A DNA stretch of 64,000 nucleotides, taken from a virus (lineage: Duplodnaviria; Caudoviricetes). The notes under the pieces are model-generated. The model had not been told where the DNA came from, made no database searches, and saw nothing but the letters and a program-made list of their open reading frames with translations. The DNA is taken from the IMG/VR virus record IMGVR_UViG_3300025129_000005, one strand, 5' to 3'. Positions 372-8,376 of this stretch are shown here, piece after piece. Every line of letters begins with the position of its first letter. Position 1 is the first letter of the stretch. The translations under genes were made by a program, and so were the position numbers.

Positions 372-445
372 CGCGGAATAGAGAAATGGCATCTCGTAAG
401 GTTCATATCCTTGAGTTACGGGTTCGAATCCCGTTTCCGCTACCA
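372..445 (+). tRNA. tRNA-Met(CAT), initiator-like (C1-U72 mismatch)
   Basis: Cloverleaf CGCGGAA/TTCCGCT, anticodon loop TT-CAT-AT, TTCGAAT T-loop, encoded CCA. Confidence 0.9.
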
Positions 446-449
446 AGTT

Positions 450-583
450 CTGAGAGTGTCAGAGTATGTGTCATACAAGATCATATGCAATACGTGTAAA
501 TAGCATATTGAGTTGTCACAGGCTCGGATACATGAACCGAAAGTTCCTTTAAACACGTCAAAAGGGAACACTGACACTCTCAG
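450..583 (+). ncRNA. Candidate structured small RNA in the tRNA cluster
   Basis: Perfect 13-bp terminal inverted repeat CTGAGAGTGTCAG/CTGACACTCTCAG; internal hairpins; no ORF. Confidence 0.55.
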
Positions 584-604
584 TTAGTCTTTTATGATTT
601 ATAT

Positions 605-681
605 CTGTCGGTACGCAAGTCTGGTATGCGACCTGCCTTGGACGCAGGAAATCGTGGGTTCAAATCCTACCCGGCAGACCA
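605..681 (+). tRNA. tRNA-Pro(TGG)
   Basis: CTGTCGG/CCGGCAG acceptor, CCTGC-CTTGGAC-GCAGG anticodon arm, CCA. Confidence 0.92.
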
Positions 682-861
682 TTTATATAGACGCGACACT
701 TAGTTAGTGTCTAGTCAGGTGGCGATACCCTGATGATTGAAGGGGCTGACTATCCCAAAAAGCGCACTTTACACTCGTATGAGTATGTCCCTGTGGTGAC
801 AGGGTTAGTGTTACGGTGGAGATTAATTTCTGTGAAGCTGACGCACATCACCAAAATTTAA

Positions 862-937
862 GGGGGTAGGCAATGGGGTTGCGGCTTTTCCTTGCAAGGA
901 AAGTGACTGAGGGGTTCGATTCCCCCTACCTCCACCA
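862..937 (+). tRNA. tRNA-Ala(TGC)
   Basis: G3-U70 pair and A73 (Ala identity elements), loop CT-TGC-AA, CCA. Confidence 0.88.
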
Positions 938-951
938 AATTTATGAATTTT

Positions 952-1029
952 GACCCATTACTCCACGATGGCAGAGAGAACACGTTTAGACCGTGTACAG
1001 GGAGAGTTCGACACTCGCATGGGCTACCA
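952..1029 (+). tRNA. tRNA-Leu(TAG), short variable loop, imperfect stems
   Basis: ACACG-TTTAGAC-CGTGT anticodon arm; mismatches in acceptor and T stems; CCA. Confidence 0.65.
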
Positions 1030-1037
1030 AAGTTTAA

Positions 1038-1109
1038 GCTCGTCGAAGGTCTGATGACCTAGTATCTCTTACAAAGAGACTGGATGGTTTGATTCCATGG
1101 CGAGTACCA
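1038..1109 (+). tRNA. tRNA-Val(TAC)-like with 4-nt D-loop
   Basis: GCTCGTC/GGCGAGT acceptor, loop CT-TAC-AA, D arm AGGTC-TGAT-GACCT, T-loop TTTGATT, CCA. Confidence 0.65.
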
Positions 1110-1115
1110 GTTAAA

Positions 1116-1191
1116 TCAGGAGTTAAGATAGAGGTAAATCGTGTTGGCTGTGACCCAGCAAACAAGGGTTCGAATTCCTTACTCCTGACCA
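1116..1191 (+). tRNA. tRNA-His(GTG) with U-1:A73
   Basis: 8-bp acceptor TCAGGAGT/ACTCCTGA, GTTGG-CTGTGAC-CCAGC anticodon arm, CCA. Confidence 0.9.
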
Positions 1192-1194
1192 TAA

Positions 1195-1268
1195 GCCGGA
1201 TTAGTTAAATGGTATAACTTCTGTTTTGTAATCAGAATTTGCGGGTTCGATTCCTGCATCCGGCTCCA
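1195..1268 (+). tRNA. tRNA-Thr(TGT)
   Basis: Canonical cloverleaf, loop TT-TGT-AA, CCA. Confidence 0.95.
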
Positions 1269-1281
1269 AGTTTAAAGTTTT

Positions 1282-1355
1282 GCGGGTATAGTTAAAAGGT
1301 ATAACTACAGCCTTCCAAGTTGTAATTGTCGGTTCGATTCCGTCTACCCGCTCCA
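1282..1355 (+). tRNA. tRNA-Gly(TCC)
   Basis: GCGGGTA/TACCCGC acceptor, U73, loop CT-TCC-AA, CCA. Confidence 0.95.
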
Positions 1356-1392
1356 ATACATAAGTTGTCAATATTTTAAATTGAATATAGTG

Positions 1393-1421
1393 TTGACATA
1401 GTTACATAAAGACTGTAGAAT
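1393..1421 (+). promoter_or_regulatory. sigma70-like promoter for the second half of the tRNA cluster
   Basis: TTGACA-17 nt-TAGAAT. Confidence 0.8.
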
Positions 1422-1447
1422 ACTGATTAGTTTGTTTGAGAATTTAA

Positions 1448-1532
1448 GCCCCTTGCCCCGACAACAGACTTCTAATCTGTTCCTTAAAAGTTGGATGGAA
1501 GGTACGAGGTTCGATTCCTCCAAGGGGTTCCA
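1448..1532 (+). tRNA. tRNA-Arg(TCT)-like, lacking a D arm, with a long variable region
   Basis: GCCCCTT/AAGGGGT acceptor, ACAGA-CTTCTAA-TCTGT, GAGG-TTCGATT-CCTC, CCA; only ~9 nt between acceptor and anticodon stems. Confidence 0.65.
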
Positions 1533-1545
1533 GAATATTAAATAT

Positions 1546-1620
1546 GCTCCTGTAATTCAATGGTAGAATAGGCGACTTATAATCGCTCTATAGTAGGTTC
1601 GAATCCTCTCAGGAGTACCA
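1546..1620 (+). tRNA. tRNA-Ile(TAT)
   Basis: Canonical cloverleaf, GGCGA-CTTATAA-TCGCT anticodon arm, CCA. Confidence 0.88.
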
Positions 1621-1628
1621 GTTTTATA

Positions 1629-1716
1629 GAGGAAGTCTGATAGGCGTCATCCCAAACCTCTTTAAAAAAGTCGTGGGTGTCCGTTCCCTAAGAAGGTATG
1701 GGAGGACGAACTTCTC
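1629..1716 (+). ncRNA. Candidate ~90-nt rod-like small RNA between tRNAs
   Basis: Nested pairings GGAAGT/ACTTCT, CGTC/GACG, TCCCA/TGGGA, ACCT/AGGT. Confidence 0.4.
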
Positions 1717-1760
1717 AAGTTTACAAATCGCTGAATATAGTGTATCATGTTTATATGTAT

Positions 1761-1836
1761 AGGGGTGTAGCGCAAAGGCAGAGGCATCAGGTTTAAGCCC
1801 TGATTAGTGGGAGTTCGAATCTCCTCACCCCTACCA
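1761..1836 (+). tRNA. tRNA-Leu(TAA), short variable loop
   Basis: AGGGGTG/CACCCCT, TCAGG-TTTAAGC-CCTGA, 5-nt variable loop, CCA. Confidence 0.85.
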
Positions 1837-1849
1837 ATTTTATAGTTAT

Positions 1850-1925
1850 GGGGGCGTAGCCAAGTGGAATGGCAACAGACTTTTAATCTGTATATCGGTG
1901 GGTTCGAATCCCCCCGCCCTCACCA
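1850..1925 (+). tRNA. tRNA-Lys(TTT)
   Basis: ACAGA-CTTTTAA-TCTGT anticodon arm, canonical T arm, CCA. Confidence 0.93.
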
Positions 1926-1940
1926 TTAGCGAGGTAATCT

Positions 1941-2295
1941 ATGGATGATAAACTACATACCTTAGAAATAACTGGCGGTGAAACGATAGAATTCAGAGAT
2001 AAATTATCTGGTTTTTTATCAAGAGCCACTCGGAACCTTTGAGCTTACGGATAAAGAAAAATATCTGCACAGTTTGGTTAAAGAGTACCACACCCGCTGC
2101 GAGGAATACGACAGGACGGTATGTACAGACCCGGTAGAGCGAGATGGGATTCTCCCCGCGAATGGTTTTGAGGTACGCCAAATCAACCTAAACGCCATAG
2201 AAGTGCGAAAAAATTTACAAGATCGAGCCTACAGAGAGCGTGGGATCTCGCCCGGCGAGGTGAGCAGAGCCATTTCGGACTACAGAGCCAGATAA
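1941..2295 (+). pseudogene. Hypothetical gene interrupted by an apparent +1 frameshift in a T6 run near 2012-2017
   Basis: SD GAGG plus ATG at 1941; removing one T joins MDDKLH...LSGF to YQEPLGTFEL...SDYRAR in a single ORF. Confidence 0.45.
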
Positions 2296-2484
2296 CCGGG
2301 TTGTCGTAGGTGAACCAACCATTAAAAAAGAAGCAAAAAAATGTTTAAGTTTTATGTTTACATACGGTAAACAAACTGGTATAGTGGTTAAGTAGTCACA
2401 ATCACCCATCACAGATAACCAAGAGAGATACTTGGTGTCCAGAGATAATATCAACGGGGTAAGGGATTGTGTCAAGTTCTTTGA

Positions 2485-2879
2485 CAATTGAAAGTAAAAA
2501 CGGTTGACGGAATAATGGTTGCATGACCATAACGTACCCTGATAGGGGTTGAAATACCCAAAAGCCCGATGCGGTATATCTAAAGGGAGTGGTTAGTAAC
2601 GTCATCCTGAACAATGAACAGAACAGACCGAGGTAACGTAACCTAGTGTGGTCGCAATAAGGTCAAGGTTCTGGTTCTCCTGCTGAAATCCACACGATAG
2701 CCTATTATAGAATCAATGCCAGTGGGAGTTGGGGGTAAGGAAATTCCCCTCATCCAATGAACCCTTCGGGGGAGGTAAACAATAGGACTTGCTACCCTAT
2801 TGGGATGTGTCAGAATGTTTGGGTTGTCGAGAAATCTTGGATGATTGATGTTGTCATTCACCGTTTTTACTTTCAATTG
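2485..2879 (+). ncRNA. Candidate ~395-nt structured RNA closed by a perfect 20-bp helix
   Basis: 2485-2504 is the exact reverse complement of 2860-2879; multiple internal helices and a possible pseudoknot; no credible ORF. Confidence 0.6.
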
Positions 2880-3735
2880 CTAAAGAGCAATAAGTTCTTT
2901 CAAAATCAGAATATGGTCGCTTGAGGTCATAGAAATAAACCACGGTAACGTGGGGAAAGGGATGTACTTCTATCAGTCTCCCGCCCTATAAAAGGGATAA
3001 TCAAGCAAGCCTCGTCTTCACCCGTAATGGGTGAGTTCATCTTACCAAGGGATGGACTTGAGTAAGGACGGTAGAGTAGGACAAATAAACCAATGGGTAA
3101 CTCTGGTTGGTTTATCTTTCGGGTGGTACCGAATTACTGCATACCAAATCTACTTAATTACAAAAGATAAGGGGTAATCAACTCAGTCCGAGAGTAGTGT
3201 CAAGGGCGGTTGGTAGTTCGATAGGGAACGGATACCTACGGTAGTAGGTGGACGGAATCTTGACAAACCATTGAGTACCAATACAAACGGGAAAGATACT
3301 AGGTGTGTGGTATTTCGTAGTCGCAAGATTATGAATCCACAGGGGTCACACATCTTCGATAGTTAATTGACAGCCCTTGAAAGCTGTTGATTATTGGTTC
3401 AAATCCAATATTAATACTCAAACGCAAAGTTGACCCCGCTGTATGATGAAAGTGGCTTAATCCCCAACATGTTATGTGAATTGGGGTACTCAAAACCCGC
3501 AAGGTGGAGAGTATTGATAGGGAGTCGCACTTAGGGTGTTCGCTACACACTAGGGTAGACAAAGTATTGAATAGTCATACAGGACAGTGTTAAAGCAGAC
3601 ACTTTAATAATGCAGTCACGTTGGGATACATGAATGAGTTTCATGTGGACACGTGAGGAACCAAAGGGAATAAGTCCCCTACGGATAATCTCACAAAAGT
3701 CTTGACAACGAAGGTCTTAGTCTCAAACCTTCATA
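2880..3735 (+). ncRNA. Large ornate ncRNA, GOLLD-like
   Basis: ~850 nt without a credible ORF inside a phage tRNA cluster; many hairpins with GNRA loops; embedded tRNA-like element; terminal hairpin GAAGGT/ACCTTC followed by an A/T-rich hairpin. Confidence 0.6.
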
Positions 3736-3829
3736 CTTTTTAAAAAAAAGTATACAATGATTTACAAAGTAAATAATAAGATACACTTTTCCTGATATCT
3801 CTAAGAGGTATGAGGAAAAGTGTATATTT

Positions 3830-3913
3830 GGCGGGTAGCGTCAAGGTGACAAAAGTGGCTTGAACCCACTGCCACGGTAAAACGTGAGAGTTCGATTCTT
3901 TTACCCGCCTCCA
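3830..3913 (+). tRNA. tRNA-Ser(TGA)
   Basis: AGTGG-CTTGAAC-CCACT, long variable arm, CCA. Confidence 0.9.
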
Positions 3914-3918
3914 TTCAC

Positions 3919-4008
3919 GGAAAGCTAATCAGTAAGGTACTGACACCACCTGCTAAGTGGCTGGTTCGTGGTAACACGGATGGATTTCGAATATCCAGCT
4001 TTCCTCCA
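3919..4008 (+). tRNA. tRNA-Ser(GCT)
   Basis: Loop CT-GCT-AA, long variable arm, GGAAAGC/GCTTTCC acceptor, CCA. Confidence 0.9.
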
Positions 4009-4026
4009 TTAAACATAAGGACTCTT

Positions 4027-4371
4027 ATGCCCCATCTAAATGAACATGAACAACAATCCATTGAACATTTTGGCAAATCATACACAGAGGTTCATCAATT
4101 CCTTGACCAATTTCAACCACAGTTTCGTGGACCAGAACACAGACGTATCCTTCACCATACAATGGGTGTAAACGAGGTTGTAAGACGTTTTGGTGAAGAA
4201 ACAAGATCAGTGGTCGAACTTCATATAAAAGAAGATTGGAAAGGGTATTGTGGAAGTCACTATGTCCCAACGTTAAAAGAAATCGACCTTGACAATTGGT
4301 TATTGCTTAATTATAATGTAAAGGAGTATATGGACAATTTAATGATGGAGTTGTATTCCGAAAAGCTGTGA
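4027..4371 (+). CDS. Hypothetical protein, His-rich (DUF6915-like)
   Basis: H..FLDQ, HRRILHH..G and LHIKEDW pattern; SD AAGGA. Confidence 0.55.
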   Translation: MPHLNEHEQQSIEHFGKSYTEVHQFLDQFQPQFRGPEHRRILHHTMGVNEVVRRFGEETRSVVELHIKEDWKGYCGSHYVPTLKEIDLDNWLLLNYNVKEYMDNLMMELYSEKL

Positions 4372-4544
4372 AGACATTATATAAAACTATTTCGTGGAGA
4401 TTTTTTGCAACATTTTTCACTTTTATTATATCTTTTGCGTTAACAGGATCAGTTGATATTGCATCCCAAATAACCACTCTAGAGTTTGTCGTGAAAATGT
4501 TGTTGTATTATATCCATGAGAAGGTGTGGGAGAAGGTCAGATGA
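4368..4544 (+). CDS. DUF2061-like small membrane protein (58 aa, not in ORF track)
   Basis: GTG start; KTISWRF...T...LTG.....A......K..LYY.HEKVW; stop overlaps the cysC ATG (ATGA). Confidence 0.7.
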   Translation: MKTLYKTISWRFFATFFTFIISFALTGSVDIASQITTLEFVVKMLLYYIHEKVWEKVR

Positions 4545-5452
4545 AATGTGTATGGTTAACCGGTCTACCCTGTTCAGGAAAGACCACAATTGCAAATGAA
4601 TTGAATAAAGTATTAACAAATTCGGTTGTATTGGATGGGGATGATCTAAGATCAACCTATTTAGGCAAAAATGTTGGATTTTCTCCACAAGATAGACATG
4701 ATCATATTTTAAGAATGGGTGAGATTGCAAAGCTTTTTGTTAAGACTGGTACATATGCCATTTGTTCATTCATATCACCAGAAGCTAAAGCAAGAGATAT
4801 GGTACGTGAATTGTTTAATGATGGTGATTTTATTGAGATTCATGTATCAGCGTCTAAGGATACATGTGCTGAACGTGATGTAAAGGGTATGTGGAAACGC
4901 GCCATGAATGGGGATATTACCCATTTCACAGGTTTTGATGCGCCTTATGAAGAACCGATTAATCCTGAGTATACAGCATTCACAGAGTTATCCACAATCA
5001 AAGAATGTGTAGATGATATTATTGATCTATTAAAACCTTATCACAAACCAGCATGTATGTTTATAGGTCGTTGGAATGGGATTTTCCATAATGGTCATGA
5101 TTATATTATTCGTAAGAAATTAGATGAAGGTAAATCCGTAACCCTTGCCATACGTGACGTGGCACCGGATAAAAACAACCCTTGGTCTGCTAAACAAGTC
5201 AAGGAAATGATTGATTATAGATTCAAGGACTATCCAGACGTAAAAACGATTATAATTCCAGATTTAGAATCTGTGGAGTACGGTCGTGGCGTTGGGTATG
5301 AAGTCAATGAGATTAAAGTTGATAAATATATTGCAGGTATCTCAGGAACAGAATGTAGAAAGATGATTTTAGAGGGTGATGATGATTGGAAACAGTTCGT
5401 ACCTGATGAGGTGGTTGAGTATTTAACAGACTATAATAAGAGGTTTACATGA
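4541..5452 (+). CDS. cysC: Adenylyl-sulfate kinase fused to a cytidylyltransferase-like (HxGH) domain
   Basis: WLTGLPCSGKTT, LDGDDLR, RDVKG, FTGFDAPYEEP; C-terminal GRW...FHNGH. Confidence 0.92.
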   Translation: MKCVWLTGLPCSGKTTIANELNKVLTNSVVLDGDDLRSTYLGKNVGFSPQDRHDHILRMGEIAKLFVKTGTYAICSFISPEAKARDMVRELFNDGDFIEIHVSASKDTCAERDVKGMWKRAMNGDITHFTGFDAPYEEPINPEYTAFTELSTIKECVDDIIDLLKPYHKPACMFIGRWNGIFHNGHDYIIRKKLDEGKSVTLAIRDVAPDKNNPWSAKQVKEMIDYRFKDYPDVKTIIIPDLESVEYGRGVGYEVNEIKVDKYIAGISGTECRKMILEGDDDWKQFVPDEVVEYLTDYNKRFT

Positions 5453-6033
5453 ATAATTTTGAAGAATTTAACGGATCTTTGTCTATATTAGAAAGTTTTG
5501 ACTTGAATAAAACATCGACACTATCAAAAAAAGTTACTCCTTCCCAGTTTTATACGATGATGACTGATTTGATGGATAATTCTGATTGGTCTGAACAAGA
5601 TTATAATGACGCTAGGGATGATTTAAAGAAGTCTATAGACTATATTAGGGGGTATACTTTCGTTGATAATGGCGAAATGTTCTTGGTTTTCTTTGTAAAG
5701 AATGTCAAAAACGAGATAGAAGTACATTTTATAAACGTTACACAGAATAGATTTAATGTTAAAACCCATACTCACGGTAAAACTTCACAGGTTGTTTTTG
5801 CTACGGTAGTTAAGACAACGTTGGACTTTTTGAAAACATCTGGTTATGATAAAATAAGAATTAGAACCGATACCGGAAGAGATAAACTCTATAAAAAAAT
5901 ACTTGATGTTGCCGTGGAAAAGTATCTAAGTGATTGGTCGTTTGTAAGCCGAGAGCAATCAGGTGATGACGTTTCTTTTTTGTACAAGAAAAGGGATAGA
6001 TTATTGGAAGGTCTAATTGGGAGATATACATGA
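5449..6033 (+). CDS. Hypothetical protein
   Basis: 194-aa ORF translationally coupled to both neighbours. Confidence 0.75.
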   Translation: MNNFEEFNGSLSILESFDLNKTSTLSKKVTPSQFYTMMTDLMDNSDWSEQDYNDARDDLKKSIDYIRGYTFVDNGEMFLVFFVKNVKNEIEVHFINVTQNRFNVKTHTHGKTSQVVFATVVKTTLDFLKTSGYDKIRIRTDTGRDKLYKKILDVAVEKYLSDWSFVSREQSGDDVSFLYKKRDRLLEGLIGRYT

Positions 6034-6683
6034 GTAGTGTTAAACTTGTTGCGATAACGAAACCTGTTATTGAAGAGTGTGAAACGGCAGAGGAATTGAT
6101 TGCTTATGTTGCAAGGGTATCAAACCCTAACAATCAAGCAAACCACAAAACTGCGGGGAAACTGTTGAAATATTGTGCTGATCACGCACATTGGTCGATC
6201 TTTGAAACTGCCAGTATGACCATGGAAATTAAATGTACCAGAGAAATTGGTAGGCAGATCATCCGTCACAAGTCATGCAAGTTTCAGGAATTCTCACAAA
6301 GGTATGCAGAGGTCACAGAGGATTCGTTTGAACTATCCGAGGCACGTCTACAGGACAAGAAGAACCGACAGAGTTCTATCGAAGTTCATGACAAAGGGCT
6401 ACAGGATTGGTGGACACTGAATCAAGCACGTCTTCGTGACAGTGCGGTCGAGCTATATCAAGCAGCCTTGGCAAAAGGTATCGCTAAAGAGGTCGCAAGG
6501 AAGGTTCTTCCTGAAGGGTTGACCAAAACGACATTGTACCTCACAGGGGATATACGCTCCTTTATCCACTATTGTATCCTACGTTGTGATGACGCAACAC
6601 AGAAGGAACATAGGGTGATAGCACAGGAAATCAAGGTTATCTTGTTGGAACAATTTCCGTCATTGACAGAATTGTTTGAATAG
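6030..6683 (+). CDS. thyX: FAD-dependent thymidylate synthase
   Basis: HWSIFE, RQIIRHKSCKFQEFSQRY, ARKVLPEG, HYCILRC...TQKEH. Confidence 0.95.
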   Translation: MSSVKLVAITKPVIEECETAEELIAYVARVSNPNNQANHKTAGKLLKYCADHAHWSIFETASMTMEIKCTREIGRQIIRHKSCKFQEFSQRYAEVTEDSFELSEARLQDKKNRQSSIEVHDKGLQDWWTLNQARLRDSAVELYQAALAKGIAKEVARKVLPEGLTKTTLYLTGDIRSFIHYCILRCDDATQKEHRVIAQEIKVILLEQFPSLTELFE

Positions 6684-6709
6684 GATAAGATTATAGTTAT
6701 AGAAATTGA

Positions 6710-6782
6710 AGCGGTGACAGTTGATACTGATGACACTCTCATAAGGTGTTCAGTAAGGGTTTGATTCCCTTCACCGCTACCA
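6710..6782 (+). tRNA. tRNA(CAT) with 4-nt D-loop (Met or Ile2)
   Basis: AGCGGTG/CACCGCT, D arm CAGT-TGAT-ACTG, ACACT-CTCATAA-GGTGT, T-loop TTTGATT, CCA. Confidence 0.75.
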
Positions 6783-7179
6783 AAATTAAAGGAAACTTAT
6801 GACATACGATGAATGGGCAGACGAAGTAGGAATCTTTAAGGATTCTGAAAGTCGTGAAGCATGGGATTATCAACAGAAACGGATTGATAAACTCGTAAAA
6901 CAGATACAGGATTTAGGTCAAGAAGGATATGATGATGTTTAAGTTTCGGAGAAAAAGGTCAAATTGTAACAAAAACCCATACAATTTCTTTGATGAATAC
7001 GAGAAACACTATTCGTGGGATATAGGGAGACAAACACGTGATAAGTAAAAAATTGAAGGAAATGACCTACAATGATTATGCGGCACTGTCTTTAGGTGAA
7101 GCGCAAGCATTGAAGCGAATGATTGACGCAGAACTTAAACGTCTGGAAGACACTATTGCAGATCTGAAAGCAAAGGCTA

Positions 7180-7863
7180 ATGAATAATTGGATTCGCATT
7201 AAAGATCAGAAACCCGAAGATGGACAAGATGTGTTCTATTTTTTCGATGTTTTGGGTGTTTATAAAGGCAGATATTTAAGAAAAGAGTATCCAAGGGAAA
7301 TGTTTGAAGAGGGTACTGAACCTGTATATGGTGACTGTTTCTACGGTAAGAAGGGGTTTCTGACTGATGACGTAACTCATTGGATGCCTGCGCCTACTGA
7401 TGGAGAATGGGATAAAGTGTTACCTGATGGTCCAGAGGATTATGTCAAGATTCATGATGGTCATTTTGATGGTTGGGCACACAAAGATAATGTCCTCATT
7501 GTCAGGAAAGACCGTTATGAGGGTATGAAAGCACAAATCAAATACCTTGAAGATGGTCACAAGACAGGTCTTGTATGTCCTGATGATGATTGTCCTTGTC
7601 ATATTTACTGGCAGGAAGAACACGATGGTTATCGTTGTGGGTGTTGCTTGAAGACCTATCCTACCGAAGAGGTAGAGAGTGGTCACCCGAAATACATTAG
7701 CAAGTATGAACGTCCTTGTCCTCACTGTAATCCTCATAAAGAGAACACGAAAGAGTTTTTTAAGAATGGGTTCTTGGTGTATACCGCAGGAGTGGAACCG
7801 TATATCACAGAACATTACGTCTGTGAAAAATGTTACAGTACATATTGTATAGAATCAATCTAA
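7180..7863 (+). CDS. Hypothetical protein: DUF551-like N-terminus, Cys-rich C-terminus
   Basis: WIRIKDQKPE...VTHWMP; several CxxC pairs. Confidence 0.7.
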   Translation: MNNWIRIKDQKPEDGQDVFYFFDVLGVYKGRYLRKEYPREMFEEGTEPVYGDCFYGKKGFLTDDVTHWMPAPTDGEWDKVLPDGPEDYVKIHDGHFDGWAHKDNVLIVRKDRYEGMKAQIKYLEDGHKTGLVCPDDDCPCHIYWQEEHDGYRCGCCLKTYPTEEVESGHPKYISKYERPCPHCNPHKENTKEFFKNGFLVYTAGVEPYITEHYVCEKCYSTYCIESI

Positions 7864-7957
7864 GGAAGTTTAACTAGATAGGATACTAGTCTTGATTGGA
7901 AATCAATGAGTTCGTGCTGATACCACGGATACGGTTCAAGTCCGTAACCTTCCTCCA
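7864..7957 (+). tRNA. tRNA-Ser(GGA)
   Basis: Loop TT-GGA-AA, long variable arm, TACGG-TTCAAGT-CCGTA, CCA. Confidence 0.82.
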
Positions 7958-8076
7958 TGTGAATATTGTGATGAATGTTTATAACGCACAACCACTGAAT
8001 GGTACAAGGGAATTATTAAAACATATCGAGCGTGATGTGTTGACGTAAATCTTTATCCGTAGAACAGGAGAAATAT

Positions 8077-8283
8077 ATGTCAAAATTGCAAAATTTTATT
8101 TTAGCACCAGATCAGATGAATGAAGCTGCTTATCACGGTAATATCGGTTTTGAGGAAATGGTCAAGTTTTACGGTAAAGCTACCAAAGCAGAGATAATTA
8201 AAATGGAATTATTTATTAAAGAAAACGATTGGGACGGATTTAAATCAATTATTAAAAAGGTGGTTGGAGTTGCATTAAAATAA
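8077..8283 (+). CDS. Hypothetical protein
   Basis: SD AGGAG plus ATG. Confidence 0.7.
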   Translation: MSKLQNFILAPDQMNEAAYHGNIGFEEMVKFYGKATKAEIIKMELFIKENDWDGFKSIIKKVVGVALK

Positions 8284-8300
8284 TTCATAATATTATTTAC

Positions 8301-8376
8301 GGGCCTTTAGTTCAGTTGGTAGAACCCCCGGCTCATAACCGGGTTGTCGTAGGTTCGAATCCTGCAGGGCCCACCA
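8301..8376 (+). tRNA. tRNA(CAT), Ile2 (lysidine)-type body
   Basis: GGGCCTT/AGGGCCC acceptor and CTCATAA loop, resembling bacterial tRNA-Ile2. Confidence 0.85.

Follow-up and report, generated by a model that had tools for sequence, protein, structure and literature searches.

A divergent GOLLD RNA from the tRNA island of a large uncultured phage, in a layout resembling a small rRNA operon

What a long stretch without genes represents in the middle of a phage tRNA island is the question raised by positions 2880-3735 of the window, that is, the whole 64-kb stretch of viral DNA analysed here (IMG/VR record IMGVR_UViG_3300025129_000005). The window contains 15 tRNA genes in a run (372-8376), and the stretch is located in a gene-free gap of 1.9 kb within this run, between a tRNA-Lys gene (1850-1925) and two tRNA-Ser genes (3830-4008), just as a preliminary description had placed it. 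The same window encodes DNA polymerase, clamp loader, primase, helicases, single-strand DNA-binding protein, and ribonucleotide reductase, and the host element is an uncultured large phage with a tRNA island. Phages and prophages encode GOLLD RNAs, in many cases close to tRNA islands, and their linker sometimes holds a tRNA (Kretsch et al. 2025, PMC12286853). The best overall explanation, with a probability of roughly 93%, is that a GOLLD RNA of about 820 nt belonging to a divergent clade is encoded at ~2913-3732 on the plus strand of this island, together with the steps of transcription, processing, and assembly proposed below. Neither the family nor its occurrence in phages and beside tRNAs is new; of interest here are a missing P21b contact, an apparently decaying tRNA in the linker, and an rRNA-operon-like unit that includes an unclassified 355-nt RNA. 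The features are collected in Table 1.

Table 1. Positions of the features of the GOLLD locus in the window
Feature	Position	Strand	Basis
Putative sigma-70-type promoter, TTTACA-17 nt-TATAGT with TG before the -10	2357-2385	+	Consensus scan
boxA-like word 1, GTTCTTTGACA	2476-2486	+	Matches GYTCTTTRANA; overlaps the 5' arm of the long helix
Unclassified ~355-nt structured RNA in a 27-bp helix	2478-2886; arms 2478-2504 and 2860-2886	+	Inverted repeat, 93% complementary
boxA-like word 2, GTTCTTTCAAA	2894-2904	+	One mismatch to GYTCTTTRANA; 9 nt before the canonical GOLLD start
GOLLD 5' domain	~2913-3299	+	Homologous in L121, L120 and L122
Hairpin CCACG-GTAA-CGTGG	2940-2953		Present in sequence
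Hairpin TGTCAAG/CTTGACA	3199-3205 and 3260-3266		Present in sequence
Hairpin ACCTAC/GTAGGT	3235-3250		Present in sequence
GOLLD 3' domain	3300-3729 (part covered by Rfam; domain 3300-3732)	+	RF02032
Hairpin CGTAGTC-GCAA-GATTATG	3317-3334		Present in sequence
Degenerate tRNA-like insert	3357-3417	+	Rfam tRNA model, 21.6 bits (threshold 29)
Last hairpin GAAGGT/ACCTTC, then ATACTTTTT	3711-3716 and 3727-3732; element to 3741	+	Final helix of the Rfam model

The preliminary description had assigned the stretch to GOLLD by pattern recognition, and the covariance-model check that it proposed bore this assignment out. The Rfam model RF02032, which represents only the conserved 3' domain, matched 3300-3729 (+) from end to end (positions 1-416 of 416) with 177.2 bits and an E value of 4e-48, the curated gathering threshold being 150 bits. 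The ROOL and OLE models, whose use had also been proposed, were run as well. Both families are large, highly structured, and non-coding like the RNA described here, and ROOL is furthermore phage-borne, located near tRNAs, and cage-forming (a feature of ROOL), but neither of them gave an Rfam match in 1900-4100 even at E <= 1. The earlier view that the stretch holds no credible ORF was also right, since the longest ORFs, in 2643-3562, are of 31-77 aa and each of them is disrupted by stops or frame shifts in relatives. Concerning the dense structure that had been noticed, the 849-nt stretch folds better than its own shuffles (z = -5.1).

Relatives of the locus were not found among deposited phages, as blastn of 1926-3829 against 50,697 INPHARED records gave zero matches, and the neighbouring APS-kinase fusion protein retrieved no relatives when used as a query in IMG/VR. 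DNA pattern scans and the neighbouring DUF6915 protein were the means by which three related GOLLD loci were recovered: L121 (also L001, one 240-kb contig in IMG/VR and JGI), L120 (a 1.2-kb GenBank metagenome contig), and L122 (a 30-kb Logan contig). Two further sequences, L125 and L126, belong to the same phage as the window and are identical to it over 1926-3830. This phage is present in groundwater samples, among them JGI 3300008086 and ENA ERZ17986939. In the assembly collection, its neighbouring protein appears in the index of 110 blocks, and the clade-specific GOLLD pattern was absent from GTDB genomes in a pattern scan. Positions 1-55 of L120 are a copy (96% identity) of GOLLD-internal sequence corresponding to window 3439-3493, an assembly artefact that masks the true 3' end. 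In related phages a tmRNA gene lies a few kb downstream (10313-10635 in L122 and 3321-3658 in L123); none was detected by Rfam or ARAGORN anywhere in the 64-kb window.

The three relatives also score above the RF02032 threshold (183.7 bits for L121, 201.8 for L120, and 188.7 for L122). The clade of the window thus covers 177-202 bits, whereas 14 unrelated metagenomic GOLLDs from IMG/VR reach 270-330 bits, so that the window GOLLD, a genuine member of the known family, belongs to a divergent branch of it.

Regarding the 5' half, homology across the four sequences of the clade starts near 2893. Their consensus fold of 2887-3300 contains 106 pairs, 37 of which present compensatory changes, and 97.9% of the cells pair, a share that falls to 38-50% once the partners are shifted by one to three columns; the observed values were reached by none of 500 shuffles. 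In the 3' domain, the fold of the four sequences comprises 111 pairs, 26 of which have changed in both partners. All five hairpins named in the preliminary description are present in the sequence, and four of them are either compensated in relatives or helices of the Rfam model. The fifth, TGTCAAG/CTTGACA, is unproven: only an invariant core of 5 bp (TCAAG/CTTGA) is retained, and in the RNAalifold fold these bases have other partners.

The 5' boundary was approached with a covariance model (R2; window 2909-3000) built on the first three hairpins. In 100 other GOLLD loci it found 72 matches, each of them on the GOLLD strand, and for 71 of these the distance to the conserved 3'-terminal motif downstream is 545-771 nt (median 741), the offset in the window being 736 nt. 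Among the other loci with enough upstream DNA, 70 of 82 carry the first hairpins at the family offset. Moreover, the construct used for cryo-EM of the env-38 GOLLD begins at the equivalent base, AUGGCCGCUAUGGUCGU... (supplement of PMC12286853). The canonical RNA is placed at ~2913-3732 because of this family-wide offset and the start of the env-38 construct, and the limits of 2880-3735 proposed earlier were essentially correct (within 35 nt), enclosing the canonical RNA and the boxA-like word ahead of it. A closing helix of the 5' domain between TCTTT (2896-2900) and AAAGA (3293-3297) was considered and dropped: it presents zero covariation, falls outside the env-38 construct, and coincides with the family-wide boxA-like word.

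The env-38 GOLLD has 833 nt, with a 5' domain (1-420), a 3' domain (421-833), and a disordered variable linker (497-538) (Kretsch et al. 2025, PMC12286853). The window RNA is similar to it in size (~820 nt), in its division into two domains, of which the 3' one is conserved and the 5' one more variable, and in the opening hairpins of the 5' domain. The model of the middle 5' domain (R1) had no matches among the GOLLD loci searched and that of the distal 5' domain (R3) matched L081 only, among 100 GOLLD loci, so that these parts are not recognisably common to mainstream GOLLDs and are shared only by the clade and L081. These sparse matches fit the published statement that the 5' region of GOLLD is less conserved (PMC12286853), and they speak neither for nor against membership of the family. 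The single R3 match is at 1150-1246 (-) of L081, an IMG/VR locus which also has the closest 3' domain outside the clade and, judging from these similarities, is probably its nearest outgroup.

Within the 3' domain, a variable linker (~3352-3431) is closed by the helix GGGGTCA/TGACCCC, which covaries. ARAGORN called no tRNA in the insert that it holds (3357-3417). The homologous inserts of L121 (31.3 bits) and L122 (33.7 bits) exceed the tRNA threshold of 29, and that of L120 is mostly deleted. The insert of the window looks like a decaying tRNA; a linker able to hold a tRNA is shared with other GOLLDs and fits the published statement that tRNAs sometimes occupy it (PMC12286853), the difference being that the tRNA is degenerate here.

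In env-38, the loops L21a and L21b form self-kissing contacts that join the half-shells, and L21a covaries between GC and CG (PMC12286853). These P21a/P21b contacts are a feature of the solved env-38 and stand outside the Rfam threshold criterion. The cmscan alignment of the window has about 20 consensus positions deleted at P21b, where the four clade members are collinear, and a single longer hairpin stands in the clade where the P21a/P21b pair would be expected. The loop of this hairpin may be the equivalent of L21a, according to its approximate position in the Rfam model. It reads UCGCU in the window, UAGCU in L120, UUAGCUG in L122, and AUUAAUU in L121, so that self-complementary words are found in all of them (GC/CG in the window, AGCU in L120 and L122, and AAUU/UUAA in L121). 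The 4-nt palindromes AGCU and AAUU of the relatives would fit a self-kissing loop, and the GC/CG dinucleotide of the window is of a kind that chance alone gives in most 5-nt loops. Since the P21b loop provides one of the two contacts joining the halves of env-38, its absence may result in a different or weaker assembly.

The last hairpin is compensated in L121 (GGTGGGT/ACCCACC), with a T-rich run after it, and L122 presents an extra strong GC hairpin with a T run 25 nt beyond the last GOLLD hairpin. These features suggest that the 3' end of the RNA, or the termination of its transcription, would be near 3740. Further downstream, at 3778-3828, there is an imperfect hairpin with 25-nt arms (88% complementary) that ends one base before the tRNA-Ser(TGA) gene at 3830, and it could be a processing site or a terminator between GOLLD and the tRNAs.

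On the other side of the RNA, the 430 nt that follow tRNA-Lys (1926-2356) have no gene call, RNA-family match, or homology in L122. They are followed by the putative promoter TTTACA-17-TATAGT, which is the sole exact match to this pattern in the 64-kb window. Its hexamers and their spacing recur, with a divergent spacer, in L122 directly before an additional RNA module and in L121 directly before GOLLD. This module is the structured RNA of about 355 nt enclosed by a long helix (Table 1), and since the shared promoter precedes it in the window and L122, or GOLLD in L121, the module is placed inside the GOLLD transcription unit. The enclosed RNA thus probably shares a transcript with GOLLD.

In L122, one compensatory change and a 2-nt insertion matched between the arms keep the 27-bp helix of this module paired. 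Its interior is predicted to be more stably folded than shuffled versions (z = -3.8), and the few substitutions there are mostly pair-preserving. No family was assigned to the enclosed RNA by Rfam at E <= 10, and no other copy was found in the window, in 119 GOLLD loci (profile search), in INPHARED phages, or in a pattern scan of IMG/VR. A scan of GTDB gave three pattern matches, all of them due to chance and inside coding sequence.

The promoter is followed by words resembling the boxA of bacterial rRNA operons. The published gammaproteobacterial consensus is GYTCTTTAANA (PMC5725501), and the pattern used here, GYTCTTTRANA, loosens it at one position. For comparison, the rrn boxA word of Escherichia coli is UGCUCUUUAACA, and that of the Bacillus subtilis leader, which binds NusB, is AUGAUCUUUGAAA (PMC13753749). 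At the position of boxA-like word 2, L122 carries GTTCTTTAAAA and L121 carries GATCTTTGAAA, the latter being identical to the B. subtilis word (PMC13753749). Taken by itself, the window shows no enrichment of the pattern: it has three matches where 0.96 would be expected, and three are also reached in 7 of 100 shuffles. However, GYTCTTTRANA occurs on the sense strand at the 5' edge of GOLLD in 55 of 72 other unique IMG/VR loci, with 0.005 expected per 160-nt interval, the interval scanned (740-900 nt upstream of the 3' motif) being just before the canonical 5' end. It is this conservation of position across the family, and not an enrichment in the window, that gives weight to the boxA case. 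The GOLLD locus lies behind an rRNA-style boxA-like signal that could recruit NusB/NusE. No paper linking GOLLD with boxA or Nus factors was found in the literature.

Some other occurrences of these words should be mentioned. At 2470-2486, TGTCAA-GTTCT-TTGACA could form a local hairpin of 6 bp that would hide boxA-like word 1; this hairpin is not conserved in L122. In other GOLLD phages (L004, L010, L078, L002, L006, L045, L051, and L032) a boxA-like word precedes tmRNA, tRNA, and unassigned RNAs, each with its own promoter; in L032 the word is ahead of an unassigned stretch of ~240 nt. Furthermore, four rows of the published ROOL alignment contain UGUUCUUUGAUAU (supplementary file 5, PMC12286853), and a boxA-like word may therefore be present in or beside some ROOL RNAs too.

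The relation between the module and GOLLD admits another reading, in which both form one oversized RNA of ~1.26-1.34 kb (from ~2392 or 2475 to ~3740) and the 400-nt module is retained at the 5' side of GOLLD as an additional domain, which might decorate the shell or serve as a tethered cargo, instead of being released separately. The block shared with L122, which starts 420 nt before GOLLD, is unbroken over 2475-3731; the common promoter is upstream of the module, with no second one of this kind between module and GOLLD; and the module is better conserved (88-91% identity of the interior in L122 and L120) than the adjoining GOLLD 5' domain (~75%). All of this agrees with a single RNA. Nevertheless, the module is present in three of the four clade members and has no counterpart in L121, whose GOLLD is complete and above the threshold without it. 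GOLLD consequently has no need of the module, which is separable and outside the canonical RNA. In addition, the canonical start point is found in 70 other GOLLD loci, a second boxA-like word stands between module and GOLLD as in rRNA spacers, and the 27-bp near-perfect helix is a duplex of the RNase III type. RNase III cuts near-perfect duplexes of this sort in rRNA precursors. Retention of the module in an oversized RNA is accordingly possible but unlikely.

The terminal inverted repeats raise a different possibility, namely that the module inserted itself as a selfish element (for example a miniature inverted-repeat element, or what is left of another mobile RNA gene) with no role with GOLLD, which on landing in the GOLLD leader duplicated its target, giving AAGTTCTTTGACAAT and AAGTTCTTTCAAAAT. 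The flanking direct repeat (13/15), the patchy presence among relatives, and an identity higher than that of the flanking GOLLD, which would fit a recent spread, agree with such an origin. However, the scans of the window, the 119 GOLLD loci, INPHARED, IMG/VR, and GTDB yielded no other copy; the interior is predicted to be tightly folded with substitutions that mostly keep the pairs; and the supposed target duplication is the boxA-like word found ahead of stable-RNA genes in many phages, which gives it a functional explanation. A selfish insertion is for these reasons improbable. Finally, the idea that the whole stretch is a new class of large RNA only superficially similar to GOLLD, or merely structured spacer DNA, could appeal to the low family score and to the absence of one family hairpin, but it is already refuted by the full-length RF02032 match above the curated threshold, by the 5' sub-domain model that falls at the right offset and strand in other GOLLDs (71/72 matches), and by the extensive covariation in both domains.

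Returning to a GOLLD RNA of canonical length transcribed behind a separate module, the following course of events is proposed. Host RNA polymerase would start at the conserved promoter, with a transcript start near 2392. The boxA-like word of the nascent RNA would recruit the host antitermination factors NusB/NusE, as on rRNA operons, before it later pairs within the long stem. Antitermination and chaperoning of the Nus type would then allow this long untranslated RNA to be completed and to fold during its synthesis. The transcript would carry, in order, the ~355-nt RNA in its 27-bp stem, the second boxA-like word, and GOLLD. By analogy with rRNA precursors, the stem is probably a processing stem of the RNase III kind, the cutting of which would release the enclosed RNA, and GOLLD would end at its last hairpin and U tract. 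By analogy with env-38, the mature RNA would probably self-assemble into a closed shell during lytic growth. The env-38 cage is a homo-oligomeric 14-mer. For the window GOLLD, a cage-like assembly is an expectation drawn only from its membership of the family.

The layout of the window resembles that of a small rRNA operon. It shares with bacterial rrn operons the order of promoter and boxA-like word, the pairing of both flanks of the first RNA in a long helix, and another boxA-like word ahead of the second RNA; these words match published rrn boxA sequences (PMC5725501, PMC13753749). The differences are that the cargo is a phage RNA and an unclassified RNA instead of rRNA, and that no boxB or boxC is established in the window. 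Compared with other GOLLDs, the presence of an extra stem-enclosed RNA between promoter and GOLLD is also a difference. It could be speculated that the clade makes GOLLD from a mini rRNA-like operon in which the enclosed 355-nt RNA, as a new structural class, is a functional partner of GOLLD, for example co-assembled with the shell or enclosed in it and not an unrelated passenger; this is a tentative suggestion, and rather an unlikely one.

GOLLD is among the few natural RNAs known to form a closed shell of RNA alone. The clade described here lacks one of the two contacts between cage halves and offers a natural variant for assembly studies, in which it can be tested which contacts are needed, and the remaining loop of the relatives has a longer self-complementary word. 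Moreover, the locus adds to the evidence for an rRNA-like transcription of GOLLD behind boxA, which, if true, would involve the Nus machinery of the host, and the unclassified 355-nt RNA, probably in the same transcript, is a candidate partner of GOLLD.
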